Assembly: GCA_965613025.1 (NCBI GenBank)
Contig: CBFDUE010000004.1
Location: forward strand, 11,411 to 75,410
Length of the DNA: 64,000 nt
Reading direction: 5' to 3'
Source of the DNA: an uncultured bacterium
GTDB taxonomy: Bacteria; Desulfobacterota; DSM-4660; Desulfatiglandales; JALVMZ01
Numbering within the stretch: position 1 is the stretch's first letter; each line of letters starts with the position of its first letter. This document shows positions 7,129 through 30,692 of the stretch, piece after piece. Below the pieces are notes generated by a model, which was given only the letters and a program-made list of their open reading frames with translations, was not told the origin of the DNA and did not search any database. A program made the position numbers and the translations under genes.

Positions 7129-7872
7129 GTGTATATGAATAGAGAGGAAGGAATAATATATCCAAGAAGGGGGAAGGGTGAGCCTTGTATTGAAGGTGAT
7201 GTATTGATGGTGCTCGTATCAGGTGAGCTCAATAGATTTAAAGAGCGTTTTAATGCCTTTCCCATATACAGGTTTGATTCAGAGATCTTTCATCTCTTTA
7301 AGGTGGATAAAGGGCCCTATATGGTAGGCCCCTTTTTAGGGGCACCTCAGGCAGTACTTGGCCTTGAAAAGATGATTGCACTTGGGGCAGAAAGGATCTG
7401 GGTATATGGATTCTGTGGTTCTATCCAGGAAGATATAGAGATTGGAGATATTATAGTTCCCCAAAGCTCAATTCCAGAAGAGGGGACTTCAGAACACTAT
7501 CCGGTGGATCTGGAAACCTGTAGAACTGATATGGAGATGAACAGCAGGATCCTTGAAATCTTAGATAAAAGGGGCCTAAGGTATCATAAAGGGAATATGT
7601 GGAGCATAGATGCGCCCTATAGGGAGACGCCTTCAAAGATACGGAGATATTGTGAGATGGGTATATTGGGTGTGGATATGGAGCTCTCTGCTCTGATTAC
7701 AGTTGCAACCTTTAGATCAGTGAAGATTGCGGGGTTGCTTCTGGTCTCTGATCTGCTTTTACCTTACAGATGGAAGCCGGGGTTCAGGGATAAGGAATTT
7801 AAGAGGGTATGTGGATTGATTCCAGATATCTTTAAAGATCTCCTTTTAAGGTCATGGAGAAGAGATGGATAG
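7129..7872 (+). CDS. PNP/UDP-family nucleoside phosphorylase-like protein
   Basis: 247 aa with a family-like core (GAPQAVLGLEKMIALGAERIWVYGFCGS, GDIIVP, SIDAPYRE, GVDMELSAL). The start may be the ATG at 7135 rather than the GTG at 7129. Confidence 0.7.
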   Translation: MYMNREEGIIYPRRGKGEPCIEGDVLMVLVSGELNRFKERFNAFPIYRFDSEIFHLFKVDKGPYMVGPFLGAPQAVLGLEKMIALGAERIWVYGFCGSIQEDIEIGDIIVPQSSIPEEGTSEHYPVDLETCRTDMEMNSRILEILDKRGLRYHKGNMWSIDAPYRETPSKIRRYCEMGILGVDMELSALITVATFRSVKIAGLLLVSDLLLPYRWKPGFRDKEFKRVCGLIPDIFKDLLLRSWRRDG

Positions 7873-9001
7873 AGAAATGAGTCAAGAGATAGAAAATCTG
7901 GAAAACAGGATAATGTATCATAGGTTTAGATATCATATCCTAAAGGATCCTGAAATAAACGATGAGGACTATGATAGATTATTGAATAGACTCATTGAGC
8001 TTAAAAGTAGATACGGCCTTGAAGATGCTCCTACATATAGATGGAAGAGGGACCTTAAAAGATATGTCATAAGAGATATGGAAAGGCTTATAGAGCTTTT
8101 AAATATTCAAAGGGATAGATATGACTCATTCATTGTTGAGCCTCTTTTAAAAGGTGTAGAGGTGGATCTACTCTATAGAGAGGGAAGGCTTATATCTGCA
8201 ATATCTGAAGATGATGAGCTCTTTCTACATATGTCCACCATCCTGGATGTTCCTTTACATATTTTTCCCCTATATGATAATCTCACCATTCCTCCATGGC
8301 TTACAGTTGGTATAAAGGTATATATGGAAAGGCAGGATCTAAATACATTAAATTCAGCACTTCAAAGCAGAGGCATTAGGGGTTTTAAAGACACATTTCA
8401 TGCGACCTCACATTCATTGAAAACTGATCCAAGGATTACTGCAAGAAGACCCCTTAAGATCTTTTGCTATTGGGCAAAGGCAGATTTTGGATGCGAATTT
8501 AAAAACCAGATTGAACTTATATCCTATCTTCAGAATCTGGGTTTTAGAATAAACCGAACGATGATTAGCACCTTTTCTAACCCATATGATATTGAGGAGA
8601 TCCATAAAGAGATAAGGGATGAAACAGATGAGCTTCCATACGATGTGGAAGGCATGGTAATAAGGGAAAACAGACCCCTTAAAGAGGATGGAACAGAACT
8701 CTTTATCCGATTCCTCTGGTCTCAAGAGGAGTCATCACTGAGATTTCTCTCCCTTCCCACACCTTCAAAGAATATATTTAAAGGTAAAAAGGTGTGTCTA
8801 AGTGGTTCCCTAAATTCCCTTTCATGGAATGAGATAAGGGAATATCTGGAATCCTTAGGTGCTAAGCTGGTCCATGAGCTATCATCTGACACTGATCTTC
8901 TCATCTTAGGTGATGCTCCTGGGCTAAAGCTAAGAGAAGCAAAAGAGATGGGTATTGAGATCATAGATGAAGCCACATTCTTTAAGATATTGGAGGGATA
9001 A
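7865..9001 (+). CDS. truncated, catalytically degenerate NAD+-dependent DNA ligase (LigA) paralogue: domain Ia + NTase-like fold + BRCT
   Basis: Collinear by eye with E. coli LigA at three points. Domain Ia is RYHILKDPEINDEDYDRL. The NTase region contains DPRITARRPLKIFCY. The BRCT region is KGKKVCLSGSL...LGAKL...TDLLILGDAPGLKLREAKEMGIEIIDEA. KxDG is replaced by LLKG. The OB, Zn-finger and HhH regions are absent (378 aa versus about 670). Confidence 0.75.
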   Translation: MDREMSQEIENLENRIMYHRFRYHILKDPEINDEDYDRLLNRLIELKSRYGLEDAPTYRWKRDLKRYVIRDMERLIELLNIQRDRYDSFIVEPLLKGVEVDLLYREGRLISAISEDDELFLHMSTILDVPLHIFPLYDNLTIPPWLTVGIKVYMERQDLNTLNSALQSRGIRGFKDTFHATSHSLKTDPRITARRPLKIFCYWAKADFGCEFKNQIELISYLQNLGFRINRTMISTFSNPYDIEEIHKEIRDETDELPYDVEGMVIRENRPLKEDGTELFIRFLWSQEESSLRFLSLPTPSKNIFKGKKVCLSGSLNSLSWNEIREYLESLGAKLVHELSSDTDLLILGDAPGLKLREAKEMGIEIIDEATFFKILEG

Positions 9002-9002
9002 G

Positions 9003-9281
9003 ATGGATAATGTCAGAATGCACCTGATTATAAAAGGAAGGGTTCAGGGGGTATTTTTTAGAGATTCCACAAGACAGGTGGCAAGGAGCTTAGGAGTTAC
9101 AGGATGGGTAAAAAACAGATGGGATGGCACTGTGGAAGTCGTTGTAGAGGGTTCAGAAGATAAGGTAAGAGAGCTGATTAAATGGTGTCATAAAGGGCCT
9201 CCTGCTGCCCGTGTTGACGGAGTGGATGTTAAGGAAGAGGAGTTCTTAGGCGAATTTGATAGCTTTGATATAGTCTATTGA
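9003..9281 (+). CDS. acyP: acylphosphatase
   Basis: VRMHLIIKGRVQGVFFRDSTRQVARSLGVTGWVKNRWDGTVEVVVEG is the acylphosphatase signature. Start chosen at MDNVRMH (9003). The ORF is open from 8967. Confidence 0.85.
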   Translation: MDNVRMHLIIKGRVQGVFFRDSTRQVARSLGVTGWVKNRWDGTVEVVVEGSEDKVRELIKWCHKGPPAARVDGVDVKEEEFLGEFDSFDIVY

Positions 9282-9282
9282 G

Positions 9283-10179
9283 ATGAATAGAAGATCTTTT
9301 ATATTATGTATCTTGGTCTTTATCTGCATAATTGGGTGTAACCGGATAAGAAAGATCCCTGAACCCGTGCTCAGTCACTTTAGGGCAAAGAAGACCATCT
9401 TAAAAAAAGAGATCCTATATTTTCCCATTATAAATAGTGCAAAGCTCAGTGAAGACCTTATCCGGGAATTAGATACGCTCTTTATGGATAGGCTTTTAAA
9501 GGATAGAAGACTTATAGTTCGAAAGGAGATGCGTTATAGACCAACACTTGCAAAGACCCTTCTTCCCTACTATGGGATCAGCATAGATCAGGATCTACTA
9601 AAGAAGGGTAAGGCTCAAGGTGCACAGATAATACTTACTGCTATTATTCCCCCCTTTCAAAAGGAGATTAAAAAGAGAGGGATATGGCCTTTTAGAAAGG
9701 AAAGGCAGGAGCTAAAGATATTTATGGTCTTAAATATGATTGATGTATTTACAGGGACCTATATCGCATCCAGTGTGGAAGAGGAGACACTATATCTTGA
9801 AAATGATGAGGAATCTCAGATGGCACTCAGTGATGAAAGGATCTTAAAGACCTTTAAGAGATTAACAAAAAGGCACATCAATACCCTTCTTAAGACCCTA
9901 TCTGAGATTCCCTGGCAAGGCAGAATAATAAAGGTAGATGATGGAAACATATTCATTAATGGTGGCTCATTGGTGGGGCATAAAAGGGGGATGATATTTG
10001 AGGTATATCCCATTAGTGACTATATACTTTCCTCAGAAGGAAGGCCCATACCGGTCTTGGGAGATAAATTGGGTGAGATAGAGATAAAGGAGACAAGAAA
10101 GATAAGTTCTATCTGCATATCCCTAAATAATAAAACAAAATATAGTGTGGGTCAGATTGTCCGCCTCAAAAGAGAATAA
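9283..10179 (+). CDS. hypothetical lipoprotein
   Basis: Signal peptide with lipobox (LVFICIIGC). No recognisable catalytic motif. The start is 1 nt after the acyP stop. Confidence 0.6.
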   Translation: MNRRSFILCILVFICIIGCNRIRKIPEPVLSHFRAKKTILKKEILYFPIINSAKLSEDLIRELDTLFMDRLLKDRRLIVRKEMRYRPTLAKTLLPYYGISIDQDLLKKGKAQGAQIILTAIIPPFQKEIKKRGIWPFRKERQELKIFMVLNMIDVFTGTYIASSVEEETLYLENDEESQMALSDERILKTFKRLTKRHINTLLKTLSEIPWQGRIIKVDDGNIFINGGSLVGHKRGMIFEVYPISDYILSSEGRPIPVLGDKLGEIEIKETRKISSICISLNNKTKYSVGQIVRLKRE

Positions 10180-10193
10180 TTAAAAGTAATTTA

Positions 10194-11864
10194 TTAAAAT
10201 TTTCGTAACATCTCCCTTGCATGTTCTATAGCCTTTTTTGTTATCTTTTTACCTCCAAGCATTCTGGCTATCTCTCTTATACGCTCCTCTTTATTGAGTT
10301 TGAGGATCTGTGTCTCTGTCCTCTTACCCTTTATCCCCTTTCTTACAAGGAGATGGATATCCCCTTTACTTGCTATCTGTGGAAGGTGGGTTATACATAT
10401 CACCTGATAGGATGAAGATAGTGCTCTGAGCTTTTCACCCACAACCTCTGCAGTTGCTCCCCCGATGCCAGAGTCCACCTCATCAAATATAAGCGTCTCA
10501 CTGCTCTCCTTCTCAGATAGGATACTTCTTATAGCAAGCATAATGCGAGAGAGTTCTCCACCTGAGGCGATCTTTGAAAGGGGTTTGAGATCCTCTCCTA
10601 TGTTGGTTGAGATAAAAAATTCCACCCTATCATATCCAGAATCGGTTAATTTAGGTTCTCCTTCATTCTCGTTAAAGAAACGAACTTCAAAGCTCGTTCC
10701 CTTCATATCCAGTTGGTTCAGCTCCTTTTCAATAGCACACTTCAAAGATTCTGCCACCTTATGTCTCTTACTGGAGAGGAGGTGTGCCATATCCCATAGC
10801 CTTTCCTCCATATCTGAATATCTCTTCTTTAAATCTTCTAATCTAAGAACCTTTTCCTCAATCCCTGAAAGCCTCTCTTCAAGTCTCCTTTTGGTCTTTA
10901 GGATCTCTTCAATGGTAGATCCATATTTTCTCTTAAGTCTATTGATCACAGACCTTCTCTCCTCTAAACCCATAAGCCTTTCAGGGTCTAAGGAGAGGTT
11001 CATCTTTCTTCTTCCCACCTCCAATGCCACATCCTCTGCATTTACTTTTGCGATTTCAAGCTGATCCACCATCTCCTTAAAGACGCTATCAAACTCCTTT
11101 AAGTCTTCCATCTCACCAATAACACTATGTAACTTAGAGATAACCGAATCCTTTCCTTCATAAAGTTCCTCATAGGCATTGTTTAGAACCTCTGCAATCC
11201 TTTTGGCATTCTGAAAGATCTTAAATTCCCTCTCAAGCTCTTCATCTTCTCCTTCTTTAAGCCCGGCAGAGTCTATCTCTCTGAGTTGAAATCGGATAAG
11301 CTCTTCCATCTTTTGATCCTCTTCAAGCTCCATCTTTAATGTGTGGATCTCCTGCTCCAATCTTTTAAAATCTTCAAATACCTTTCTATATCTTTCTCTT
11401 TCTTCCAGGAGCCCTCCAAACTGATCCAGAAGTTTTAGATGGTTTTCTGCTTTCAATAGCTCCTGATGTTCATTTTGCCCGCTTACACTTATAAGCATGC
11501 GAGCGAGATTTGAAAGTATCTGAACTGTGGCAAGCATCCCGTTTATTAAGACCCTATTTTTACCACCCCTCTGAATCCTTCTTATTATAAGGAGCTCCTC
11601 CTCTACAGGATATCCCAGCTCTTTGAGATACTCTGCCACCTTAGAACTCTTGGGAATGGAAAACAGGGCCTCTACCCTCGCCTCCTGTGAACCTGAGCGT
11701 ATCATCTCTGAAGATGATCTGATTCCCCTAATCAGATTTACCGCATCTATGAGTATGGATTTACCTGCACCTGTCTGGCCGCTTATGATATTTAGACCAG
11801 GAGCGAATCTTACCTCCAGCCTGTTTATGATTGCAAGCTCAGATATGTTAAGTTGAAGAAGCAT
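10194..11864 (-). CDS. recN: DNA repair protein RecN
   Basis: 556 aa SMC-like protein with N-terminal Walker A (GQTGAGKSILIDA), long coiled coil and C-terminal signature and Walker B (ASGGELSRIMLA, LIFDEVDSGIGG). Confidence 0.9.
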   Translation of the reverse strand: MLLQLNISELAIINRLEVRFAPGLNIISGQTGAGKSILIDAVNLIRGIRSSSEMIRSGSQEARVEALFSIPKSSKVAEYLKELGYPVEEELLIIRRIQRGGKNRVLINGMLATVQILSNLARMLISVSGQNEHQELLKAENHLKLLDQFGGLLEERERYRKVFEDFKRLEQEIHTLKMELEEDQKMEELIRFQLREIDSAGLKEGEDEELEREFKIFQNAKRIAEVLNNAYEELYEGKDSVISKLHSVIGEMEDLKEFDSVFKEMVDQLEIAKVNAEDVALEVGRRKMNLSLDPERLMGLEERRSVINRLKRKYGSTIEEILKTKRRLEERLSGIEEKVLRLEDLKKRYSDMEERLWDMAHLLSSKRHKVAESLKCAIEKELNQLDMKGTSFEVRFFNENEGEPKLTDSGYDRVEFFISTNIGEDLKPLSKIASGGELSRIMLAIRSILSEKESSETLIFDEVDSGIGGATAEVVGEKLRALSSSYQVICITHLPQIASKGDIHLLVRKGIKGKRTETQILKLNKEERIREIARMLGGKKITKKAIEHAREMLRKF

Positions 11865-13693
11865 CAGCTCTCCACTTCATGAATCTCTTCCCATGTTACC
11901 CTTAACACCTCTTCGTATGTGGTGATTCCCTCAATTAGTTTTCTTACCGCATTGTCCCTCAGGGTTACCATTCCCTCCTCTATTGCCACCTTTCTTGCAG
12001 AGTCTGTATCAAATTGATCCCTTATCAGTGACCTTATCCTGTCTGTTACGGTCAGGATCTCAAATACTCCACTCCTTCCAAGATAGCCTGTTCCTCTACA
12101 TCTTATACAGCCCTTACCTCTATAAAGGGTTATCTTACCATCCCTTCTTATATCTATTCCAAGCTCCCTTAATTCCTCTGAATCCATAGTGAATCTCTCT
12201 TTACAAAATCTGCAGATCTTTCTTACCAACCGTTGAGCCACCACACCTATAAGTGTTGCCTTGATTAAGAAGGCAGGAAGACCCAGATCCAGAAGCCTTG
12301 TTATGGCAGACACCGCATCATTGGTATGCAGTGTGGAAAAGACCAGATGTCCAGTTAATGCTGCCTGAATAGCGTTTTCAGCGGTTTCCAGATCCCTCAT
12401 CTCTCCTATCATTATAATATCCGGGTCCTGCCTTAGGATATTCCTAAGTATTGAGCCGAAGGTAATTCCCACCGATGGCTGAACCCCGATCTGATTGAAA
12501 TCTTCGTGTACCATCTCAATGGGATCTTCAACAGTGACGATATTAATCTCAGGGGATGAGAGATAGGTAAGGGTGGAATACAGGGTGGTAGACTTTCCAC
12601 TTCCAGTGGGGCCACATACAAGCACTATACCGTGTCTCATGTGAATTATCTGCCTGTATCTAAGGAGATCCATATGCGTAAATCCAAGACTATCCAGATC
12701 CTGAAAAAGTATCTGAGGGTCCAATATCCTCATTACAATCTTTTCTCCAAATGCAACTGGCACAGAAGATACCCTTATCTCCACACTGTCACTGTCTCTT
12801 TGTAGCTTTATTCTACCATCCTGTGGCCTTCTCTTCTCCGTCATATCCATTCTGCTCAGATTTTTTATTCTACTTACAATGGCAGAATGTATGCTCTTTG
12901 GAAGCTCAAATACCTTGTGCAAGACCCCGTCAATACGGAATCTTACAACACTTATATCCCTTTTGGGTTCAATATGTATATCGCTTGCCCTTTGATCCAA
13001 TGCATAGGAAAACAAATGATTAACCGCATTTACAATATGGTGATCATCAGAGCTAATCTCTCCTTTGCTTAGCTGTTCCAGATTTCCAAGATCCACAGAA
13101 GGAATAGAGAATTGCTGTTCAGCCTTTAAGATGGAGCGTCTAAAACCATAGAATTCATTTATAACCTTCAATATATCCTCTTTACTGCTAAGGACCGGTC
13201 TAACCCTCTGTTGAGTGACCTTAGATATATCTTGAAGGATTTCTATATCGAGGGGATAGGGAGTTGCAACAATCAGGGTGCCGTCTTTTTCTTCAATGGG
13301 AAGGACAAGATTTTTTAATGCAAAGCCTTCTGGGATCTTTCCTGTGACAAGCTCAAGATCCAGTTTAAGTGGATCGATCTTTTTATATCCCACATTCCAG
13401 GCCTTAGAGAGTGCCTGAAGTATGGTCTCTTCATCTAAGATCTTTCCAGGTTCATCAGCCCTTTCAAGCTCCATTGCAGATATAATATCTATTATATCCA
13501 CAGGAGGGCGTATCCTCTTAGACCCTCCTGCTACATATCTTATTCGCTGATACTCCTCAAGCCGCTTCTTCAATCTATCCTTCTTTTTGAATATCTCATC
13601 CCTCTGCCTTACATCAATAAGACCTTCTTTCAATAGAATCCCACAGACCTTCTCTGCGGAAAGATAGTCCCGTTTTATCCTCTTATTATCCAT
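11864..13693 (-). CDS. PilB/GspE-family secretion ATPase (T2SSE_N-like domain + ATPase core with tetracysteine motif)
   Basis: Walker A GPTGSGKSTT, Asp/His boxes (MIGEMRDLETA, TGHLVFSTLHTND), and CRFC...CIRCRGTGYLGR. Start chosen at MDNKR (13693), where TAATG overlaps the upstream stop. The ORF is open to 13726. Its stop overlaps the recN ATG (TGATG). Confidence 0.85.
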   Translation of the reverse strand: MDNKRIKRDYLSAEKVCGILLKEGLIDVRQRDEIFKKKDRLKKRLEEYQRIRYVAGGSKRIRPPVDIIDIISAMELERADEPGKILDEETILQALSKAWNVGYKKIDPLKLDLELVTGKIPEGFALKNLVLPIEEKDGTLIVATPYPLDIEILQDISKVTQQRVRPVLSSKEDILKVINEFYGFRRSILKAEQQFSIPSVDLGNLEQLSKGEISSDDHHIVNAVNHLFSYALDQRASDIHIEPKRDISVVRFRIDGVLHKVFELPKSIHSAIVSRIKNLSRMDMTEKRRPQDGRIKLQRDSDSVEIRVSSVPVAFGEKIVMRILDPQILFQDLDSLGFTHMDLLRYRQIIHMRHGIVLVCGPTGSGKSTTLYSTLTYLSSPEINIVTVEDPIEMVHEDFNQIGVQPSVGITFGSILRNILRQDPDIIMIGEMRDLETAENAIQAALTGHLVFSTLHTNDAVSAITRLLDLGLPAFLIKATLIGVVAQRLVRKICRFCKERFTMDSEELRELGIDIRRDGKITLYRGKGCIRCRGTGYLGRSGVFEILTVTDRIRSLIRDQFDTDSARKVAIEEGMVTLRDNAVRKLIEGITTYEEVLRVTWEEIHEVES

Positions 13694-14475
13694 TAACCCT
13701 TTTTCTCCTTTAATATAAACACCCATCCATTGGTTTCATAATCAAAGATAAGAGATATGGCAGAAATTGTCAGCGTTTTTCCATTAAATACCATCTCCAT
13801 AATCTGTTCATCACCTTGGTGTGTAGTTCTATCTCTTATAAGATCCCTTAATCGATTTATATCAGATCCCTCTGATAATTCCCATATCCTGCGACCTAAA
13901 AGATCTTCAGTGCTTAGATCCAGGATATCAGTGGCCTTAATGTTACAACCTGTTATAATACCATCGCTATCCACAAATATAATACCCATTGGAAGGGAAT
14001 TTATAATGGATTTCATGTATCTTATATGATCCAGAAGCCTTGCAGTTTCCTGCCTGGGCCAGATTTTCCTTGGTTCTATTATCTTGGTCTTTCTCTGCCT
14101 TCCCCCCTGTTCCACCTCCTCTAAGACCTTTTCAATCTCTCTTTTCATATTATTTATGGGGCCTTTTATAATTAGATAATCAACCCCCATATCTTTGGCA
14201 CTTTCCATCTGCTCAAGTAAACATCCACTATATACCACAACCACTATCCCTTTTTCTTTTGCCCATCCCTTCAAAAACTCAATGATCTGCTCCCCATCTG
14301 CATAGGAGATCATATAGTCCATAAAGATAAGATCAAAGTCTTGCCTTCTAACCATCTCAAGTCCCTTTCCCGCCCTGTAAGATCTCCAGACCCTATAGCC
14401 CCTCCCCGTAAGTATCCTCTCTAAGAATTCCACAAAGAGAAAGTCATTATCAATTATGAGTGCCTTTCCTTTCAT
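13693..14475 (-). CDS. response regulator: CheY-like receiver + PAS domain
   Basis: The receiver has an intact acidic pocket and phospho-Asp (IIDND, LIFMDY, VVYSG, IIKGP). The C-terminal part is PAS-like (GIIFVDSDGIITGCN...). Start chosen at MKGKALIID (14475) after GGAGAGAGGGGG. The ORF is open to 14499. Confidence 0.8.
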   Translation of the reverse strand: MKGKALIIDNDFLFVEFLERILTGRGYRVWRSYRAGKGLEMVRRQDFDLIFMDYMISYADGEQIIEFLKGWAKEKGIVVVVYSGCLLEQMESAKDMGVDYLIIKGPINNMKREIEKVLEEVEQGGRQRKTKIIEPRKIWPRQETARLLDHIRYMKSIINSLPMGIIFVDSDGIITGCNIKATDILDLSTEDLLGRRIWELSEGSDINRLRDLIRDRTTHQGDEQIMEMVFNGKTLTISAISLIFDYETNGWVFILKEKKG

Positions 14476-14486
14476 CCCCCTCTCTC

Positions 14487-16847
14487 CTATGTTACACATA
14501 CCCTTCTTACCTCACCCATATCCGTCTCACCACTGAGCACCTTTAAGATACCATCCTGTTTTAGTGTGGTCATTCCCTCCTTAAGTGCAGCATCTCTTAT
14601 AGTCTCTGTCTCTGCCTCTTTTTTAATAAGTTTTTTGATTGTAGCGGTTCCTTCCATGAGTTCATGAATGCCCATTCTGCCTCTATACCCTGTATTCATA
14701 CACTTATCGCATCCCTTAGGCCTATAGAGCACCAGCTCTTTGGAATATGTGATACCGGTATTTTTAAAGAACTCTTTTCCATACTCCATTACTAAGGATT
14801 CAAATTCCTCTTCATCAGGATGGTATGGCTCTCTGCAGTCTTTACAAAGCCGTCGGACCAGTCTCTGTGCCAGCACCCCGAGTAATGAGTCTGCAAAATT
14901 AAGCGGATTTATTCCCATATCCAAGAGCCTTGTGATGGTCTCTGGGGCGCTGTTGGTATGCAATGTGGAAAAGACCAGATGCCCTGTTAAAGATGCCTCC
15001 ACTGCAATGGAAGCAGTCTCTTTATCCCTCATCTCACCTATCATTATAACATCAGGATCTGCCCTGAGAAACGCCCTCATAACTCTTGCAAAATCAAGTC
15101 CAATCTTTGGCTTTACCTCTACCTGCCTCATTCCCTTCTGTGTGATCTCCACAGGATCCTCAGCAGTCCATATCTTTATCTTTGGGGTATTTATATAATC
15201 TAAGCATGCATGAAGTGTGGTGGTCTTCCCTGACCCAGTTGGACCAACCACTAAGACTATTCCATAGGGTTGGGTTATCAGCCTCTTCAGAGTTGAAAGA
15301 TTTCGCTCTGTCATCCCCATATCCTCAAGCTTCATTGCCCCTGCCTTAGCCAATATCCTGAGCACCGCATCTTCATAACCTCCCACTGTAGGGATAGTGG
15401 CCAATCTGAGCTCAAAGGGTGTTATACCCTTTCTTCTGAATTTAATCTTACCATCCTGAGGAAGGCGTCTTTCTGAGATATCAAGCCCTGCCATTATCTT
15501 TAATCTGGAAAGCACAGGTCTTGCCATACTCAATGGAAGGCTGATATATTCCTGACAGACCCCATCTAACCTAAACCTTATAATAGTCCTCTTTTCCTGA
15601 GGAGAGGGTTCAATATGAATGTCTGAGGCCCCCTGTCTAAATGCACTTAACAATATATGATCCACCGCTCTTACCACCTCTCCAGATTCCTCATCCCACT
15701 CCTCCTCTATCTCTTCTTCCTCCTCCTCAACAAGGCTTATCTTAGGAAGATTTGATAGATCTTCAAAGAGCTCCCTTTCTCTTTCCTCTTCCTCTTTCCT
15801 TTCATAGATCAGCTCTATATACCTTTCAATGTCCTCCTTAAGCCCTACATAGAATTTGATCCTATCGGTCTTAAGAAGTGCCCTTATATGATCTATCTTC
15901 ATAGGATCATTGGGATTATCCACCAAGACCTCCACACCATCTTTACTCCATCTCAATGGAACCCAGTGCTCATGAAGCAGAAAGGACTTTTTTATACTTA
16001 CCACAAGCTCTGATGGGAGCAATATATTGGGTTCAAAACCTTTAAATGGGCATCTGTAATAGTGTGAAAGGGATCTGCCTATGTCTTCCTTTTTAATGTG
16101 AAAATGCTCCATAAGGACAGTATCAATACTCTTTCCGCTTCGCTTTGATATATAAAAGGCCTCTTTTAGCTGCTCAGGGCTTATGATATGGTTCTGAATC
16201 AGATAATCATAGCGTGAGCCGGATACTATGCTTATCTTCAATATCTCCATCCTTTTCTTTATATCTGGATCCTGAGGGAATTCTTTGAGCAGCTCTTCGT
16301 AAAGGTTCCTTGCCAAATCTTTACTTCCTCTGCTATCTAAGTATTCGGCAAGCACTAAGAATGCCTCCTTGTATCTGGAGCCCTTTGAATTGATATTCTT
16401 TCTGATTATATCTTTTACCTTTTCAGTTGCCTCTGAAACACTATATCTATGTATCAGGATCTGCATCAGATTGGGAATTATCCAGGATATGGAATATCCC
16501 AAAGAAAGCAACTTTTCATACTCAGAGATAGCCCTATCCAGGAGGCCAAGTTCTTTAAATGCCTCGGCACTTTCTAAGATCTCCGATGGTGTCTGACTGA
16601 GATCAAGAGCTTCATTTATCCTGCGCAGATCTTCTGGTCCAATATCCTTTACATATCTCTTTTTTCCATCTTTAATCTTCTCTTTAAGCTCATCCATCCT
16701 TTTTTGTATCTGCCTTTTCTTTGCCTCTTCAATTGAAAAGGCATCAATTATCTCCTTATAGACACTTAGGGCCTCATCCAAAAGACCCATAGACTCGTAG
16801 GTCTCAGCCTCCCTAAGCCTCTTTTCCATATCACCGCTGCTATTCAT
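14487..16847 (-). CDS. PilB/GspE-family secretion ATPase with N-terminal TPR-repeat region
   Basis: 786 aa. About 200 aa of TPR-like repeats (AETYESMGLLDEALSVYKEI, AEAFKELGLLDRAISEYEKLL, LAEYLDSRGSKDLARNLYEELL). Then a T2SSE_N-like domain, an acidic linker, Walker A GPTGSGKTTT, IMIGEMRDKETA, TGHLVFSTLHTNS and CKDC...CDKCMNTGYRGR. Confidence 0.85.
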   Translation of the reverse strand: MNSSGDMEKRLREAETYESMGLLDEALSVYKEIIDAFSIEEAKKRQIQKRMDELKEKIKDGKKRYVKDIGPEDLRRINEALDLSQTPSEILESAEAFKELGLLDRAISEYEKLLSLGYSISWIIPNLMQILIHRYSVSEATEKVKDIIRKNINSKGSRYKEAFLVLAEYLDSRGSKDLARNLYEELLKEFPQDPDIKKRMEILKISIVSGSRYDYLIQNHIISPEQLKEAFYISKRSGKSIDTVLMEHFHIKKEDIGRSLSHYYRCPFKGFEPNILLPSELVVSIKKSFLLHEHWVPLRWSKDGVEVLVDNPNDPMKIDHIRALLKTDRIKFYVGLKEDIERYIELIYERKEEEERERELFEDLSNLPKISLVEEEEEEIEEEWDEESGEVVRAVDHILLSAFRQGASDIHIEPSPQEKRTIIRFRLDGVCQEYISLPLSMARPVLSRLKIMAGLDISERRLPQDGKIKFRRKGITPFELRLATIPTVGGYEDAVLRILAKAGAMKLEDMGMTERNLSTLKRLITQPYGIVLVVGPTGSGKTTTLHACLDYINTPKIKIWTAEDPVEITQKGMRQVEVKPKIGLDFARVMRAFLRADPDVIMIGEMRDKETASIAVEASLTGHLVFSTLHTNSAPETITRLLDMGINPLNFADSLLGVLAQRLVRRLCKDCREPYHPDEEEFESLVMEYGKEFFKNTGITYSKELVLYRPKGCDKCMNTGYRGRMGIHELMEGTATIKKLIKKEAETETIRDAALKEGMTTLKQDGILKVLSGETDMGEVRRVCVT

Positions 16848-16852
16848 CTTCT

Positions 16853-17461
16853 TTAGATAATACCTCCCTTTCTGAGGGATCTTACCACAAGCTCAATTAT
16901 CTCTTTCATGGTGGGTATGACATTCCTTCCATAAAGAGCACTTGCCTCAAAATAGGGGGCTCTTAACTCATGGTTTAGATCTGCTTCCAGAGAGGCTATA
17001 TCTAAGAGTGGGATTCCCTTCTTTTCCAGATCCCTCTTATTGTATTGAAATACTATTGGTATTCGAAATATGTCCCTCTGTAAGATGGAAAGATTTTCTC
17101 TAAGATCCAAAAGGGATATTATGTTTTTCTCCCTTCTTACCAATATGGAATCTGCAACAAAGACTATACCATCCACTCCCTTCAGTATCAGTCTTCGGGT
17201 CCTCTGGTATGCAGATTGCCCTGGCACACTGAAGAACTTGACCTCTAAGCGATATTTCTTTATAGTTCCCAGATTAAAGAGAAAGTAGTCAAAGAAAAAG
17301 GTCTTCTTCTCTTCCCAATTCACTATTGAAAGCCTGGATCTTATCCTGTCCCTATAGGTATTGTATATATATTCAAGGTTTGTGCTCTTTCCTCCTCTTC
17401 CAGGCCCATAGTATACGATCTTAACTCCAATCTTTCTGTTTTTTTTATCTATCCATGCCAT
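16853..17461 (-). CDS. MglA-family Ras-like small GTPase
   Basis: Gap-free collinearity over the first ~110 residues with my recollection of Myxococcus MglA. Matching segments are KIVYYGPGRGGKSTNLEYIYN, TFFFDY, SVPGQ, LILKGVDGIVFVADS and QYNKRDL. Confidence 0.8.
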   Translation of the reverse strand: MAWIDKKNRKIGVKIVYYGPGRGGKSTNLEYIYNTYRDRIRSRLSIVNWEEKKTFFFDYFLFNLGTIKKYRLEVKFFSVPGQSAYQRTRRLILKGVDGIVFVADSILVRREKNIISLLDLRENLSILQRDIFRIPIVFQYNKRDLEKKGIPLLDIASLEADLNHELRAPYFEASALYGRNVIPTMKEIIELVVRSLRKGGII

Positions 17462-17515
17462 AATTTGGTAAAATCTATTTTATTTGCTTATATTTTGTAT
17501 GTAAAATGATTTATT

Positions 17516-21635: not shown

Positions 21636-22580
21636 ATGCCTCTGGTCTCTGTAATAATTCCCACATTTAACAGGGCAAGATTGGTAAAAAGGGCAATCAG
21701 CTCTGTGTTGTATCAGGATTTTAAAGACTATGAGATAATTGTGGTAGATGATGGATCTCAAGATGAGACATCCTCTGTCTTAGATCGCTTTAGCAGGTAT
21801 ATAAAGATAATCAGACACAAGAAAAATATGGGTGTATCTTCTTCCAGAAATAGCGGTATCAGGGCATCTTCATCCCCCTTTTTGTCATTCTTGGATTCTG
21901 ATGACTACTGGTTTTCAAAAAAGTTAAAGATTCAGACTGAATATATGTTGGAGCATCCGGATTGCAAGATCTGCCAGTGTGAAGAGATCTGGATAAGAGG
22001 GGGCAGGAGGGTAAATCCTAAAAATATTCATAAAAAGGAAGGGGGTTATATATTTGAAAGATCTCTAAGGCTATGTCTTATAAGTCCCTCTGCGGTGATA
22101 ATTAGAAGGGAGCTATTTGATGAAGTGGGCCTATTTGATGAGGAGCTTCCAGCCTGTGAAGACTATGACATGTGGCTTAGGATCTCTTCAAAGTATCCTG
22201 TGCATCTTATAAAGAGATATCTTTTAGTCAGGGAAGGGGGGAGGCAAGATCAGCTATCTTACAGAATAAAGGGTCTTGATAGGTTCAGGATAAGATCCAT
22301 GGTAAAGCTCTTAAAGGAGGGGAATCTGGATAAAAGGCAGATAACTGCTCTTTTAAGAGAGCTAAGGAGAAAATGTGATATCTATGGAACAGGGTGTATA
22401 AAGAGGGGAAAGATAGAGGAGGGGAATTTCTATCTTTCCCTTCCTCAAGTTTTAGAGTGGCATCTGATTAGTTCAGGACTTATCCAGGATCACCACATCC
22501 AGCCTACCTCCAAGGGCTTCTTGGATCAGGAAGATATGAAAGATCCAGCCAGAATTAATTTCTATCCAATACTCTCCTGA
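21636..22580 (+). CDS. family 2 glycosyltransferase
   Basis: VSVIIPTFNRARLVKRAISSVLYQDFKDYEIIVVDDGSQDET and a DSDD motif. The last ~35 codons read through an antisense remnant of the MBL gene 3' end (see the repeat feature). Confidence 0.85.
   Translation: MPLVSVIIPTFNRARLVKRAISSVLYQDFKDYEIIVVDDGSQDETSSVLDRFSRYIKIIRHKKNMGVSSSRNSGIRASSSPFLSFLDSDDYWFSKKLKIQTEYMLEHPDCKICQCEEIWIRGGRRVNPKNIHKKEGGYIFERSLRLCLISPSAVIIRRELFDEVGLFDEELPACEDYDMWLRISSKYPVHLIKRYLLVREGGRQDQLSYRIKGLDRFRIRSMVKLLKEGNLDKRQITALLRELRRKCDIYGTGCIKRGKIEEGNFYLSLPQVLEWHLISSGLIQDHHIQPTSKGFLDQEDMKDPARINFYPILS
22243..22525. repeat. long direct repeat, copy A (intact GT2 3' end + remnant of the MBL-hydrolase 3' end)
   Basis: Aligns by eye with 30693-30983 at roughly 90% identity with one ~10-nt indel. 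The minus-strand reading of 22470-22525 gives IQEALGGRLDVVILDKS*. The genuine MBL C-terminus is FRDALQGKLDVVILDKS*. Confidence 0.85.
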
Positions 22581-26519: not shown

Positions 26520-26681
26520 AAGTTTAATTATTTATTTAAATCATTGAATTCCTTTTTTCAACCACTCTTTTTTTGCCTTGGTCTTGATTGTAGGAGCCTT
26601 CTTTTAACTTCCAAGATCTAAAATTTTCTCTACCAAAGGCCGATTAATTAAGAAAAGTCTATATATTTGGATCAGGAGATT

Positions 26682-28391
26682 ATGAACATGAACTTAATCA
26701 CTCAGATATATAAAATTTTAAGGCTATCGATCTTAGATATTCCTCACAATAGGCTTTTAAAATCTATTCTGGATATTCTTTCCACTGATCCAAACTCCTC
26801 TGTAAAGAGAGGAGGTTGCCTCTATATCTTTCAGAATAATAGGCTTAAATTATCTGTCCATAATGGATTAGGAAATGAGGTGACTTGCGAATGCCCTGAG
26901 ATTGAAGTGGGTCAGTGTCTTTGTGGAAAGGCAGCCCAGATATGCAGAGTTCAAATTTTGGAACACCGTGAGAGAAATCATCTTCATCTATATGTTCCAA
27001 TAATCTTTAAAAGCCGACTGTATGGACTCATCAATCTATATCTACCAAATGGTTATAGATATTCAGCCAAGGAAGAGCAGTTTTTAAAATTAGCATCGGT
27101 CTGGATCGGGGAGTTATTGAATAGGAAATTAGATGAAGAGAAATTAAAAGAGGCGCATATAGAGACACGCCTTATTTTAGATTCTGTAGGAAGTATAATT
27201 ATAGGATTAAATAGGGAAAATCGAGTGAGAATCTGGAATAGAGGTGCGGAAAAGATCTTGGGAATAAGTCAGAGTGAGATAATTGGTAGAAAGATAGATG
27301 AATGTGATATCTTATGGGATCTTGAAAAGATCAGAGCGGGTATTTCAGAATGCAGAATAAAAAGGACTCCTATAAGACTTGATGAATTAGATTTTAAAAG
27401 ACCTGATGGAAGCAGAGGATTTCTGGGAATAACCATTAATCCAATATTTGATTACAATAAGATGAATGTGATTATATATGGAGCTGATATCACAGAGAGA
27501 AAAAATTTAGAATTACAACTCGCACATACCCAAAAGTTAGAGTCTATTGGACAATTGGCAGCCGGTATCGCACATGAGCTAAACACTCCAACCCAATACA
27601 TCGGGGATAATATAAGATTTCTCAATGACTCATTCCGGGATCTGACCAGCCTAATTGATTATATAATGAAATTTTTAAATAGAGGTGAAACAGAAACAGA
27701 CCCCCTTCCCATTGATGAGATTAAAAAGAGGATGGAACAATTAGATATGAGTTTTCTATTGAAAGAGATACCTAAGGCTATTGAGCAATCCTTGGAGGGG
27801 ATTGATCGTATCTCCCAGATTATCCAGTCAATTAAAGAATTCTCTCATCCAGGCTCAAAGGAAAGGGCGTCAGTTGATATTAACAGATGCATTCAAAATG
27901 CTATTACAATATCAAAAAACGAATGGAAATATGTAGCTGAGCTGACAACTGATCTAAAACCAGACCTCCCACATATATATGGATATCCTCAAGAACTAAA
28001 TCATGTCTTTCTAAATATCATAATTAATGCAGCTCATGCTATAAAAGAGAGACTAAAAAGGAATAAAGAGGAAATTAAGGGAAGAATCCATATAAAAACA
28101 GATACATCTGAGGGATTTGTGGAAATAAGAATAAGCGATAATGGGATAGGAATCCCCAGAAGTATTCAAAAGAGAATATTTGATCCTTTCTTTACCACTA
28201 AGGAGGTGGGTAAAGGCAGTGGACAAGGTTTAGCGATAACCCACAGGATAGTGGTAAAAAAGCATAATGGCTCTATCTTCTTTGAAACAGAAGAAGGGAA
28301 AGGCACCACCTTTATCATAAGGCTTCCTATTAATAATCTCTCAAGTGGTGAGGGAGGATATGAAAAAGGCCAGGATATTATTTGTGGATGA
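26682..28391 (+). CDS. cytoplasmic sensor histidine kinase (Cys-rich GAF-like domain, PAS, HisKA, HATPase)
   Basis: No TM segment. H-box LAAGIAHELNTPTQYIGDN, then NIIINAAHA, ISDNGIGIP and GSGQGLA. Start chosen at the ATG at 26682 after AGGAG. The ORF is open from the TTG at 26667. Confidence 0.85.
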   Translation: MNMNLITQIYKILRLSILDIPHNRLLKSILDILSTDPNSSVKRGGCLYIFQNNRLKLSVHNGLGNEVTCECPEIEVGQCLCGKAAQICRVQILEHRERNHLHLYVPIIFKSRLYGLINLYLPNGYRYSAKEEQFLKLASVWIGELLNRKLDEEKLKEAHIETRLILDSVGSIIIGLNRENRVRIWNRGAEKILGISQSEIIGRKIDECDILWDLEKIRAGISECRIKRTPIRLDELDFKRPDGSRGFLGITINPIFDYNKMNVIIYGADITERKNLELQLAHTQKLESIGQLAAGIAHELNTPTQYIGDNIRFLNDSFRDLTSLIDYIMKFLNRGETETDPLPIDEIKKRMEQLDMSFLLKEIPKAIEQSLEGIDRISQIIQSIKEFSHPGSKERASVDINRCIQNAITISKNEWKYVAELTTDLKPDLPHIYGYPQELNHVFLNIIINAAHAIKERLKRNKEEIKGRIHIKTDTSEGFVEIRISDNGIGIPRSIQKRIFDPFFTTKEVGKGSGQGLAITHRIVVKKHNGSIFFETEEGKGTTFIIRLPINNLSSGEGGYEKGQDIICG

Positions 28392-29538
28392 TGAGCCAAA
28401 CATCTTAGATGGGATCAAAAGAGAGTTGAGAAAGATGAAGGGTAGATGGGAGCTTTTCTTTACCAATACCCCTGAAAATGCTTTACAGTTAATAGAACAG
28501 CACTCCTTTGATATAGTGGTATCTAATATAAAGATGCCTTCAATGGACGGGCTGACCCTATTAAAAAAGATTAAAGAATCTCATCCCACAATTATCAGAG
28601 TCACATTAAGTGGAGAGGTAGACAAAGAGAAGATTCTAAAAACATCTCTCATTGCCCATCAGCACCTATCCAAACCATGTTCTAAGGCCTCTTTAGTAGG
28701 CACAATCCAATCTCTGTTAAAGATAAGGGGGATATTAACTAATCCTAAGATAAAGGCTATAGTATCAAAACTATCCAGGGTTCCTACACTTCCTTCTCTC
28801 TATATTAAGATTACTGAGTACATGCAAAAGGGTGACGCCTCCCTAAAAAAGATAGGTGATATAATCTCTCAAGATCCCTTTATGACAGCCAAGATATTAC
28901 AGATAGTAAACTCTTCCTATTTTGGATATGGTGGAAAAATTAAATCCCCTCAACAGGCTGCGGTTATCTTAGGTTTGGAGACTTTAAAGAGCATAATATT
29001 AGGACTGGGAATCTTTTATGGCCTTCAGGGAGAGAGGGAAAAAAGAGAGATGGATTCCTTATGGAATCACAGTATAAGATGTGCAAGGATAGCAGAGAAG
29101 ATTGCACTTAGAGAATCTAATGACATCGGCTTTTCTGAAAAGGCCTTCTTAGTAGGACTATTACATGATCTGGGAAAGGTTGTAATTATAACAAATTTCT
29201 TTGATCTATATAAAAAGATTAAAGATTCCTCTTCTCCCTTAGACACAGAGAGGCAGGAATTGGGATGCACACACTCAGAGATTGGAGCATATCTTCTGGG
29301 TCTCTGGGGTTTTGAAGAGGAGGTAATAAGAGCGGTAAACTCCCATCATAAAGATTGCCTTATAAAAGACCAGGGCTTATCCGATATTCTCTGTTTTGCA
29401 AATCTATTTTCCAAAAGAGCCCTGCAATCAGAAGCAGATCTTGAAGATGATCATTATCTGAACTCTAAGGGGGAGATTCTAAAAAGATGGATCTCATATA
29501 TTCATGAAGATGAGACTTTGGAGAAGATGAATGAATAG
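28360..29538 (+). CDS. receiver (phospho-acceptor Asp replaced by Asn) + HDOD domain protein
   Basis: The receiver is ILFVDDEPN...DIVVSNIKMPSMDG...LSKPC. The HDOD-like region is LPTLPSLYIKITEYMQ...ISQDPFMTAKILQIVNSSYFG...LLHDLGK. Start at MKKARILF (28360) after GAGGGAGGA. Confidence 0.8.
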   Translation: MKKARILFVDDEPNILDGIKRELRKMKGRWELFFTNTPENALQLIEQHSFDIVVSNIKMPSMDGLTLLKKIKESHPTIIRVTLSGEVDKEKILKTSLIAHQHLSKPCSKASLVGTIQSLLKIRGILTNPKIKAIVSKLSRVPTLPSLYIKITEYMQKGDASLKKIGDIISQDPFMTAKILQIVNSSYFGYGGKIKSPQQAAVILGLETLKSIILGLGIFYGLQGEREKREMDSLWNHSIRCARIAEKIALRESNDIGFSEKAFLVGLLHDLGKVVIITNFFDLYKKIKDSSSPLDTERQELGCTHSEIGAYLLGLWGFEEEVIRAVNSHHKDCLIKDQGLSDILCFANLFSKRALQSEADLEDDHYLNSKGEILKRWISYIHEDETLEKMNE

Positions 29539-30676
29539 CAAAATTCTCATTGTTGATGATGAACAGAGGGTCTTAGATGGAATAAAGAGGTATTTAGGAC
29601 GAGAATATAGGATGGATACAGCCCTTGGCCCAGAGGAGGCCTTAAGCAAGATATCCAAAGATGGTCCATATTCAGTGATAATCTCTGATCTAAGAATGCC
29701 TAAAATGGATGGCATTCAACTTTTAATCAGGGTCAAGGAGATATCTCCTGATACGACAAGAATCATCCTTACGGGCTATGCAGAACTTGAAAGCGCCATT
29801 GAGGCTGTAAATAAAGGGCATATCTTTAGATTTCTTACAAAGCCATGCTCCCCTGAGATACTTAGAAAGACCATAGAGCAAGGGATAAGACAATATGAAT
29901 TAATTGTATCTGAAAGGACCTTATTAGAGAAGACACTAAAAGGGATTGTTAATGTATTAATGGAGGTCCTATCTCTACTGAATCCTGAGGCATGGGATAG
30001 GGCAATGAGGATTAAAGAATATACAAAGATGATCTTAGGAGGCCTGGGTATAGAAGATGACTGGGAAATAGAAACTGCCTCTATGCTTTCTCAGATCGGT
30101 TGCATTATGTTATCTGAAGAGACCATAAAAAAGATCTGCTCAGGCAAACCTCTTACACCTGAAGAGACTCAACTCTATGAGATGTCTCCCATGATAGGCT
30201 ATGATCTTTTGTGTCATATACCCAGGATGGAAAAAGTGGCTGAAATAATCAGATATATGGATAAGAACTTTGATGGGACAGGTATTCCAAAAGATGATAT
30301 TAAAGGGGATAAAATTCCTCTCGGATCAAGAATCCTAAAGGTTGCTGTGGATTTTGATACCATAAATAATGAGCTACACGATCCCCTCAAATCAATTCAA
30401 CACCTTAAAGAAAGAAGTCAATATTATGATCCTAAAATCTTAGAAGCCTTTAATAATGCTCTATATGGAAAAAAGGAATCAAAAGTTAGATATCTAAAAT
30501 TAGATGAGTTGAAGCCAGGGATGAAATTAGAGCAAGATATAAAGACACTAAAAGGAAGGCTTCTGATTAGCTCTGGCCATAGATTAAATGAGGTAACCAT
30601 CAGAAAGCTTTTGGCATATAGAGAAATTGAAAAGATACCAGAGCCTATTAAAGTCCTCGTCCAAGATTATTTTTAG
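29531..30676 (+). CDS. response regulator with a degenerate HD-GYP-like output domain
   Basis: The receiver is canonical (ILIVDDE, VIISDLRMPKMDG, LTKPC). The output domain is collinear with HD-GYP, but HD is replaced (MLSQIG), HHE is replaced (RYMDKNFDG) and GYP becomes GIP. Confidence 0.75.
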   Translation: MNSKILIVDDEQRVLDGIKRYLGREYRMDTALGPEEALSKISKDGPYSVIISDLRMPKMDGIQLLIRVKEISPDTTRIILTGYAELESAIEAVNKGHIFRFLTKPCSPEILRKTIEQGIRQYELIVSERTLLEKTLKGIVNVLMEVLSLLNPEAWDRAMRIKEYTKMILGGLGIEDDWEIETASMLSQIGCIMLSEETIKKICSGKPLTPEETQLYEMSPMIGYDLLCHIPRMEKVAEIIRYMDKNFDGTGIPKDDIKGDKIPLGSRILKVAVDFDTINNELHDPLKSIQHLKERSQYYDPKILEAFNNALYGKKESKVRYLKLDELKPGMKLEQDIKTLKGRLLISSGHRLNEVTIRKLLAYREIEKIPEPIKVLVQDYF

Positions 30677-30692
30677 GTAACTGATTAAGGAA

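Follow-up and report, generated by a model that had tools for sequence, protein, structure and literature searches.

The subject of this analysis is a 64,000-nucleotide stretch of DNA (the window) from an uncultured bacterium of the Desulfobacterota (assembly GCA_965613025.1, contig CBFDUE010000004.1, positions 11,411 to 75,410 of the forward strand), and in it a string of five consecutive genes read from the sequence of the minus strand at 10194-17461. They encode an MglA-like GTPase, a PilB-class ATPase with a fused tetratricopeptide repeat region (TPR-ATPase), a regulator with a receiver and a PAS domain (REC-PAS), a second PilB-class ATPase (PilB2) and RecN. Judging from gene content and order in related genomes, the string is made of two units with separate histories (17461-13693 and 13693-10194), which are joined in this species only. 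The trio of GTPase, TPR-ATPase and REC-PAS represents by the same comparison a compact version of a signalling cluster that is common among uncultured Desulfobacterota, one in which loss of an MglB-type Roadblock gene goes together with loss of catalytic residues of the GTPase. The five genes are:

17461..16853, minus strand: GTPase gene, 202 aa; the stop TAA is followed by AGAAG (5 nt) and then the ATG of the TPR-ATPase gene
16847..14487, minus strand: TPR-ATPase gene, 786 aa; the stop TAG is followed by GAGAGAGGGGG (11 nt) and an ATG at 14475
14475..13693, minus strand: REC-PAS gene, 260 aa; its stop and the PilB2 start share 1 nt (TAATG)
13693..11864, minus strand: PilB2 gene, 609 aa, an MshEN-T2SSE assembly ATPase, TfpB-like; its stop and the recN start share 1 nt (TGATG)
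11864..10194, minus strand: recN, 556 aa, last of the five genes

The cluster was recognised from the gene contexts of homologues of the GTPase. For a survey, the N-terminal TPR-MshEN region of the TPR-ATPase was aligned and the alignment used to scan GTDB, each species being represented by a single genome. This gave 58 loci, of which 57 are titled as delta-proteobacterial or Desulfobacterota metagenome-assembled genomes (MAGs) or bear broad Proteobacteria-level labels; the remaining one, L068, is titled Flavobacteriaceae and is probably mis-binned. A metagenome scan with the same alignment added at least 11 loci. The comparative data thus consist of MAGs and metagenome contigs, and mis-binning and fragmentation limit the counts given here. 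The full cluster has about 11 genes. Its 5' part codes for a sigma54 response regulator, a HATPase_c protein, a Roadblock/LC7 protein, the GTPase, a hypothetical protein of ~245 aa and a DUF8082 protein (winged helix-turn-helix-like), and its 3' part for a Zn-ribbon-HAMP protein, often a 327-aa PATAN-like protein, a PAS protein, a PATAN-REC protein, a 118-aa hypothetical protein, an MshEN-T2SSE ATPase of 771-794 aa and REC-PAS. The TPR-ATPase of the window is 53% identical to the full-cluster ATPase over residues 6-785, the N-terminal region included.

Fifty-six loci have a TPR-ATPase match. In 14 of them a Roadblock and a GTPase gene lie upstream, in seven the GTPase gene stands directly beside the ATPase gene without a Roadblock gene, in 11 there is no GTPase gene within 8.5 kb, and the remaining 24 contigs end too early for a decision. 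Downstream of the ATPase, 35 of 52 evaluable loci have REC-PAS, which is itself followed in about ten loci, the compact locus L024 among them, by genes for a methyl-accepting chemotaxis protein (MCP), CheW and a CheA-like kinase. Further compact copies are found in L083, L084, L085 and L086. Altogether, adjacency of GTPase and TPR-ATPase was seen in about ten separate lineages, with spacings from a 4-nt overlap to a 79-nt gap. Among the 58 loci and the at least 11 added to them, PilB2-recN follows the trio only in the species of the window (the window and the assemblies L014 and L072). A search of the window by tblastn with the Roadblock, PATAN-REC and other cluster proteins gave nothing specific.

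A different compact form occurs in the Desulfatiglans MAGs L035, L040 and L067, where genes extending ~4-9 kb upstream of the TPR-ATPase encode a histidine kinase, REC-HDOD, REC-REC-PATAN, a 410-aa ParA/Mrp-like ATPase and a GTPase with intact catalytic residues, the TPR-ATPase coming last with no REC-PAS downstream. Locus L080 has two MglA-like genes, 1315-1908 (+) and 2213-2803 (-), beside one TPR-ATPase; one encodes a canonical GTPase, and Q82H and an AALS P-loop mark the product of the other.

The state of the GTPase active site is associated with the presence of the Roadblock gene. All 17 distinct sequences of Roadblock-adjacent GTPases show the motifs GPGRGGKTT, GD-R-T and TVPGQ and keep G21, R53 and Q82. 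When the GTPase gene lies directly upstream of the ATPase gene and is Roadblock-less, at least one of these three residues is lost in 8 of 10-11 lineages. The substitutions are K53 together with S78 in the window; N53 in L083/L085, in L084 and in L086; E21, K53 and K82 in L024; D21 and H82 in L015; S53 in L031, where the gene is divergently oriented; and the AALS P-loop with H82 in one of the two L080 copies. A Fisher test of Roadblock context against residue loss gives p = 2e-5 to 5e-5, a value which is not corrected for phylogeny and overstates independence, several of the degenerate sequences sharing a clade. The variety of the substitutions argues for repeated loss events. As a test of prediction, P0056, picked solely for its N53, turned out to lack a Roadblock neighbour and to adjoin the ATPase; P0243, picked solely as a close homologue of the ATPase, has an N53 GTPase upstream and REC-PAS downstream.

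Position 21 of the GTPase is, by alignment of the P-loops, presumably equivalent to G12 of Ras. The hallmarks of Group 1 MglA proteins are TVPGQ in G3 and, beside the G2 threonine, an intrinsic arginine finger that their GTPase activity cannot do without (PMC4316618). On these two grounds we infer that GTPases which have lost G21, R53 or Q82 would hydrolyse GTP slowly or not at all. The combined loss of the GTPase-activating protein (GAP) gene and of catalytic residues, recurring with varied substitutions, may illustrate in nature how a small-GTPase switch becomes a constitutive subunit.

The GTPase of the window matches the Ras and small_GTP models of Pfam and NCBIfam and is by homology of the MglA type, as the first-pass annotation had stated: its residues 1-200 align end to end with residues 1-195 of Myxococcus xanthus MglA (6h17) at 44% identity (E 5.5e-44), and Thermus MglA (3t12) is matched with E 4.3e-39. 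The P-loop GPGRGGKS and the G4 motif NKRD are as required for GxxxxGK[ST] and NKxD. G2 reads KKT, with K53 replacing the arginine finger R53, a position held by arginine in 116 of the 120 closest homologues; G3 reads SVPGQ, lacking Asp, keeping Gln82 and having Ser for Thr78, which is Thr in 119 of the same 120; and switch I is divergent (NWEEKK). Homologues number in the thousands, the best at 55-59% identity, and the window GTPase forms the longest branch of its family tree. A pseudogene was considered and rejected, the frames being intact in three assemblies with a ratio of nonsynonymous to synonymous substitution rates (dN/dS) of 0.21. No coupled MglB (Roadblock/LC7) GAP gene was detected in the window by tblastn with the cluster Roadblock protein. 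With R53K and no adjacent GAP, the protein is probably not a cycling switch.

The arrangement of the five genes is that of a single operon, with one strand, gaps of 5 and 11 nt and overlaps of 1 and 1 nt. The same string with the same junctions had been noted in the first-pass annotation and is borne out by our reading of the open reading frames (ORFs), as are its gene identities by Pfam and NCBIfam. The 11-nt spacer GAGAGAGGGGG ahead of REC-PAS is a good ribosome-binding site (RBS). An alternative REC-PAS start at 14499, giving the longest ORF (8 codons more), was rejected: it overlaps the ATPase gene and has no RBS. A scan inside the five-gene string found no convincing terminator, the counts not exceeding those in shuffled sequence. 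Upstream of the GTPase gene lies a divergent tRNA methyltransferase gene (TRAM-methyltransferase), and the 54-nt divergent intergenic region contains one promoter-like element:

17477..17505, minus strand: promoter-like site TTTACA-17-TAAAAT, matching 10 of 12 consensus positions

Shuffled sequence yields at least as many sites of this kind as the intergenic region, which makes the element weak evidence. The five genes are very probably co-transcribed.

The DNA of the window is 96.5% identical to L014, an uncultured Desulfobacteraceae MAG contig, and to L072, a JGI metagenome contig, and both have the five genes in the same order. In a comparison of the window with L014, purifying selection is seen on all five genes; dN/dS rises from 0.045 (PilB2) through 0.08 (TPR-ATPase) and 0.12 (recN) to 0.21 (GTPase). 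The end of REC-PAS differs: a homopolymer of five A in the window is one of four in L014 (13060-13080) and L072, where the REC-PAS/PilB2 overlap is 8 nt and not the 1 nt of the window (13693-13700), and the C-terminus reads KEKRVNG* in place of KEKKG*. The two genes overlap in the window and in both sister assemblies alike.

The TPR-ATPase is composed, according to Pfam, of TPR_14, MshEN and T2SSE domains, located as follows:

16227..16847, minus strand: TPR-like region (aa 1-207), all-helical, ~4 hairpins, family-specific; TPR_14 match at aa 161-199, E 1.4e-9
15789..16208, minus strand: MshEN / T2SSE_N (N1) domain of the TPR-ATPase (aa 214-353), Pfam MshEN
14487..15683, minus strand: N2 and ATPase core (aa 389-786) with Walker A/B, Asp and His boxes and tetracysteine

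An AlphaFold2 model built with 46 family sequences has a mean pLDDT (predicted local distance difference test) of 76; in the TPR region it shows helices from H3-19 through H194-207 (pLDDT ~80), and an acidic disordered linker at aa 358-388 precedes the N2/ATPase core. The two ATPases of the operon match T2SSE (PF00437) with E 3e-124 and 4e-126 and MshEN (PF05157) with E 3e-11 and 3e-19, and their cores are 43.5% identical to each other. Both have the Walker A motif GPTGSGKT/S, the Asp box EDPVE / EDPIE, the Walker B motif DPDxIMIGEMRD, the His box TGHLVFSTLHTN and the CxxC...CxxC motif; across 46 members of the TPR-ATPase family neither the catalytic residues nor the four cysteines vary. Both therefore look active, in agreement with the first-pass annotation.

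The TPR-ATPase belongs to a family of its own. A search of 1.84 billion proteins with aa 1-210 yielded 202 cluster representatives, the full-length matches always being N-terminal. The family, with identities of 54-62% in at least 120 clusters, stands apart from PilB2; its members always have the special N-terminus and carry generic annotations only. NCBIfam scores for the TPR-ATPase are 516.6 (PilB), 510.2 (GspE) and 427.8 (TfpB), all below the cut-offs of 675.65, 630.25 and 850, respectively. Solved structures did not permit assignment of either ATPase to PilB or to GspE, both being equidistant (E 1e-102 to 1e-115). In GspE and PilB the MshEN/N1 domain docks on the cytoplasmic platform of the machine. 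MshE-type receptors of c-di-GMP have two tandem 24-residue motifs, RLGxx(L/V/I)(L/V/I)xxG(L/V/I)(L/V/I)xxxxLxxxLxxQ (PMC5013675). Binding of c-di-GMP by the MshEN domains of the operon was rejected, as the motif, strict or relaxed, occurs in neither ATPase; its relaxed form is found in 0 of 240 homologues of the two, including 0 of 120 of the TPR-ATPase, and the NCBIfam c-di-GMP_motif model scores 28.4, under its cut-off of 38. In three loci (L005 14777-16255, L006 6838-8322 and L065 ~10001-11017) the cluster position of the TPR-ATPase is occupied by a TPR-MshEN protein of ~492 aa, which has a different short C-terminus in place of the ATPase domains and is preceded by a single-domain REC gene.

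REC-PAS (Pfam Response_reg and PAS) has an intact phosphoacceptor set in its receiver, D9, D11, D52, S83 and K104. In an alignment of 28 sequences (window and 27 orthologues) each of these residues is kept in at least 90%. Signalling genes related to those of the cluster occur at some distance in the window:

26667..30676, plus strand: histidine kinase, REC-HDOD and REC-HD-GYP genes, homologues of which recur beside GTPase/TPR-ATPase in other lineages

These genes are 9-13 kb from the GTPase module. In other lineages the REC-HD-GYP gene is adjacent to the module in L015, and the histidine kinase and REC-HDOD genes in the Desulfatiglans loci (neighbour clusters c29, c36 and c58). This recurrence suggests that the genes in the window may share a signalling network with the module. 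The window also encodes a protein with four PilZ stretches at 2408-3652 (+; Pfam PilZ, E 1e-51), which together with REC-HD-GYP and REC-HDOD points to c-di-GMP signalling, though neither ATPase has the MshEN binding motif. A direct repeat of ~300 nt (84-90% identity; 22218-22521 and 30668-30979), corresponding to the 3' end of a GT2 glycosyltransferase gene, surrounds an 8.45-kb block of signalling genes only: a hybrid histidine kinase, an SBP-like gene, a histidine kinase, REC-HDOD and REC-HD-GYP. Positions 22512-26617 are missing from the sister assembly L014. The block looks like an inserted or rearranging cassette.

PilB2 and recN have a history of their own. The best NCBIfam model for PilB2 is TfpB (634.3 bits), ahead of GspE (534.3) and PilB (522.8), all under their cut-offs; RecN is recognized by TIGR00634 with 539 bits (cut-off 408). 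Many PilB2 orthologues of ~607 aa and 64-69% identity exist in Desulfobacterota, and recN lies directly downstream of the gene in five of five loci (L007, L008, L009, L012 and L013; gaps of 11-187 nt). In the four loci that reach far enough, the block recN - hypothetical - acylphosphatase, with LigA or PNP beyond, matches positions 7129-11864 of the window. The divergent upstream gene opens a minor-pilin operon (PilW, PilX_N, N_methyl pilins, GspH/FimU-like, PilY1) in three of the five loci, and the remaining two have the ffh operon upstream of PilB2. PilB2-recN is, on this synteny, a conserved housekeeping pair of Desulfobacterota, here in its usual chromosomal place. Because of its orthologues, the recN synteny and the minor-pilin operons alongside, we take PilB2, which is TfpB-like, for the pilus-type assembly ATPase that the phylum has conserved. 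RecN of Bacillus subtilis is reported to co-localise with the DNA-uptake machinery at the cell pole (PMC2727465); a competence-related reason for the PilB2-recN pairing is possible. Within the syntenic block, positions 7865-9001 (+) encode a LigA-like protein of 378 aa with Nlig-Ia, an adenylation domain and BRCT and without OB fold, zinc finger and HhH. At the same position relatives have a LigA of 669-670 aa, and the 378-aa protein may be a relic that has undergone an internal deletion, or else a short ligase of an unusual kind.

These comparisons modify the picture drawn by the first-pass annotation in several respects. What it had called an orphan operon contains, in the trio, the reduced form of a larger cluster that includes an MglB-type Roadblock gene. 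Its notion of a self-contained five-gene module is contradicted by the separate conservation of PilB2-recN, which meets the trio in one species only, and for the same reason the recN linkage, which it had brought to bear on the GTPase module, says nothing about that module: recN belongs with PilB2. Conservation of the exact gene order in relatives, which it had proposed to look for, goes no further than the window, L014 and L072. Its suggestion of a GTPase acting on a TPR-bearing ATPase fits the tight adjacency of the two genes in about ten lineages. The possibility it had raised that relatives carry these genes inside ordinary pil clusters is partly borne out: PilB2 orthologues lie beside minor-pilin/PilY1 operons in three of five loci, and PilY1 stands beside the module in L083/L085; around the TPR-ATPase in the other loci (at least 55) no pilus structural genes were found.

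As to a pilus in the window itself, that annotation rightly reported no pilus structural gene and no mglB: Pfam analysis of ORFs of at least 150 aa in the 64 kb returned only housekeeping and signalling genes, including GidA, PurA, Dus, IspH, GroEL, LysRS, LolCDE, BamA, Lpx genes and histidine kinases, and a scan for prepilin leaders found none, as compared with 3-4 pilins in each of three control loci. A connexion with pili comes from L083/L085, the lineage closest to the module of the window outside its own species (the L083 TPR-ATPase is 62% identical to that of the window). In L085 a spacer of 10 nt separates the GTPase gene from the end of the upstream gene for a 1151-aa PilY1 (Pfam T4P_PilY1); in L083 a PilY1 C-terminus, 91.6% identical to the L085 protein, is followed by GTPase, TPR-ATPase and REC. 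The L083 fragment was negative in Pfam and in BLAST against the PilY1 proteins of L007/L008, and was identified through the full-length PilY1 of L085. Among the 150 nearest non-cluster neighbours of the TPR-ATPase, the 25 commonest families include no T2SSF, PilM/N/O, secretin or N_methyl, and in the loci surveyed outside the species of the window there is no second PilB-class gene within 10 kb. Support for a pilus as the output of the TPR-ATPase thus comes from one lineage, the protein family and analogy; it is thin.

We lean slightly towards the reading that the trio is a fused-effector variant of the MglA to TPR to PilB pathway, working on a type IV pilus encoded elsewhere. The GTP-bound GTPase would bind the TPR region fused to the ATPase, much as MglA-GTP binds the TPRs of SgmX in Myxococcus and MglA binds Bd2492 in Bdellovibrio, here with effector and motor combined in one polypeptide, and this binding would license or position the TPR-ATPase on the pilus machine. 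The same machine would normally also be served by PilB2 as housekeeping motor, the TPR-ATPase being a second extension motor. Phosphorylation of REC-PAS, by CheA in the relatives and by some kinase here, would provide the sensory input. Because the GAP gene is gone and the arginine finger lost, the GTPase, with R53K and T78S, is likely a slow or locked-on subunit and not an oscillating switch; dynamic control would then rest on the phosphorelay. Several observations weigh against this proposal or parts of it. The contact between GTPase and TPR region is deduced from gene adjacency and analogy, and beyond its own family the search with aa 1-210 returned weak generic TPR matches only. Lysine at position 53 might partly stand in for arginine. 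The Desulfatiglans loci L035, L040 and L067 are Roadblock-less yet have all three catalytic residues, the only such loci, and the degenerate GTPases partly share one clade, so that not all events are independent. In at least 55 loci outside L083/L085 no pilin, PilC, PilM-Q or PilT gene lies within 10 kb of the TPR-ATPase. MglB, the PATAN proteins and the pilus machine may furthermore all be encoded elsewhere in the genome, outside the 64-kb window.

The scarcity of pilus structural genes near these loci is also an argument for supposing that the TPR-ATPase is not a pilus motor, and that it serves as output ATPase or scaffold of a GTPase/PATAN/chemosensory network governing some other process, its adjacency to PilB2 having no functional meaning. 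The commonest non-cluster neighbours include MCP (11), HtrA and Asd; the TPR-MshEN proteins of L005, L006 and L065 do without an ATPase domain, and the N-terminal part may hold the core function; and the TPR-ATPase falls under the NCBIfam cut-offs for PilB, GspE and TfpB. We nevertheless find this rather unlikely, given PilY1 immediately upstream of the GTPase in L083/L085, a PilB-class catalytic set and zinc motif invariant in the family, the MshEN/N1 domain kept in the TPR-ATPase, and its translational coupling through REC-PAS to a bona fide pilus-type ATPase in the species of the window. It is very improbable that the arrangement is due to chance, with standard PilB- and GspE-type motors and a GTPase that is a decaying MglA relic unrelated to them. 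The equal distance of both ATPases from solved GspE and PilB structures, the long branch of the GTPase with R53 and T78 lost, and the restriction of the five-gene order to one species would all suit such an accident, but the GTPase and TPR-ATPase are adjacent in some ten lineages, the GTPase is intact in three assemblies at a dN/dS of 0.21, the TPR-ATPase family is set apart from PilB2 by a constant and special N-terminus, and no genes of a type II secretion system were seen near either ATPase.

A further explanation, compatible with the fused-effector pathway, concerns the pairing of the two ATPases: they might act on one machine, as mixed hexamers or as initiator and processive motor, the fusion of the operons having been selected for stoichiometric balance. 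The stop/start overlaps linking REC-PAS, PilB2 and recN are kept in three assemblies, PilB2 is TfpB-like, the two cores share 43.5% identity, and Acinetobacter baylyi needs both PilB and TfpB, for which hetero-oligomers have been discussed (PMC8213720; PMC11656802). However, the juxtaposition is seen in one species among ~70 loci, with no general selective link evident, and in all other genomes the two genes are at unrelated sites; we regard this explanation as having little chance of being correct. Finally, one may speculate about a joint scheme in which MglA-type GTPases control pilus extension by touching the TPR module of the motor itself directly, the GTPase of the compact, GAP-less versions would, by repeated loss of G21, R53 or Q82, have become a permanent, GTP-locked motor subunit, and the ATPases would form here an obligate pair (mixed or sequential hexamers, phosphorelay). 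We consider it quite unlikely in this complete form.

Other features of the window are mentioned for completeness. Scans for tRNA and Rfam families found nothing. At 19889-21628 (+) a single ORF of 579 aa joins IspH/LytB (aa 3-275) to a membrane domain resembling UbiA-type prenyltransferases (aa 332-542; 28.7 bits, below the Pfam cut-off of 34.2), and at 35371-37020 (+) a full-length DUF6178 protein (E 6e-123) is encoded between groEL and lysS.

MglA, TPR effectors, PilB, PATAN-REC regulators and the conservon-like order of histidine kinase, Roadblock and GTPase genes are already known. In the literature searched we did not find described a TPR module fused to a PilB-class ATPase and encoded beside an MglA-like gene, the large Desulfobacterota cluster around the TPR-ATPase, or an association of Roadblock-gene loss with loss of G21, R53 or Q82. 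What emerges is a large signalling cluster of Desulfobacterota that has no annotation and may or may not include Che genes; elements of it recall several known systems. The full cluster starts with HATPase_c, Roadblock and GTPase genes, as does the actinobacterial conservon (CvnA, histidine kinase-like; CvnB, Roadblock; CvnC; CvnD, GTPase; PMC4316618). Conservon GTPases belong to Group 2 (TT in G2, GTPGQ in G3), whereas those of the cluster are Group 1-like (RT/KT in G2, T/SVPGQ in G3), and of these genes the window keeps the GTPase only. PATAN genes near mglA and mglB have been noted before (PMC4316618), and a preprint (bioRxiv 10.1101/2021.06.11.447907) reports an interaction of PATAN-domain response regulators with the motor of type IV pili. 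The cluster, with its PATAN(DUF4388)-REC protein beside a PilB-class ATPase, resembles in this the cyanobacterial PATAN-REC proteins of the PixG, PixE and PatA type, which bind PilB1; the window, in contrast, has no PATAN gene by tblastn, and its regulator is REC-PAS.

A. baylyi extends a single pilus with two motors, PilB and TfpB (PMC8213720). There, as here, the organism has two phylogenetically distinct PilB-class ATPases, and TfpB is the best NCBIfam model for PilB2; the score of 634 nevertheless stays under the TfpB cut-off of 850, so that PilB2 is no member by that test, and in A. baylyi no GTPase or TPR is involved, the regulator being the inhibitor CpiA. The MglA-Bd2492 hub of Bdellovibrio bacteriovorus offers a parallel for the GTPase. 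In Bdellovibrio mglB has been lost, five of nine MglB-less species carry A/S21, and MglA forms a 1:1 complex with the TPR protein Bd2492, with links to pilus formation and to c-di-GMP signalling proteins (PMC3983030). The window likewise has no mglB and a GTPase with catalytic changes, and encodes REC-HD-GYP, REC-HDOD and the fourfold PilZ protein. It differs in that its substitutions are at R53 and T78, not G21; Bd2492, for its part, is a separate protein encoded with TamAB and not fused to an ATPase. The loci described here extend the Bdellovibrio pattern to another set of residues and to many uncultured lineages.

Close to the proposed pathway is also MglA-SgmX-PilB of M. xanthus, which controls the unipolar formation of its type IVa pili. 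MglA-GTP recruits SgmX, a protein with 14 TPR, which brings PilB to the pole by a mechanism described as unknown; no direct contact between SgmX and PilB was detected (PMC11580455). Both systems combine a GTPase of the MglA family, a TPR module and a PilB-class ATPase with an input of the response-regulator type (FrzS or RomR in M. xanthus, REC-PAS here) and a chemosensory input (Frz in M. xanthus, MCP-CheW-CheA in the relatives of the window). The TPR-ATPase has TPR repeats, as do TPR-type MglA effectors; they are seen in its TPR_14 match and the AlphaFold2 hairpins. Unlike in M. xanthus, the TPR module is inside the ATPase polypeptide and shorter (~4 hairpins against 14 TPR), the genes are adjacent, no MglB or RomR is encoded nearby in the window, and the arginine finger is lost. 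The TPR-ATPase, with an MglA-like gene a few bases upstream, would offer a simpler, two-protein system in which the MglA/TPR/PilB step can be tested.

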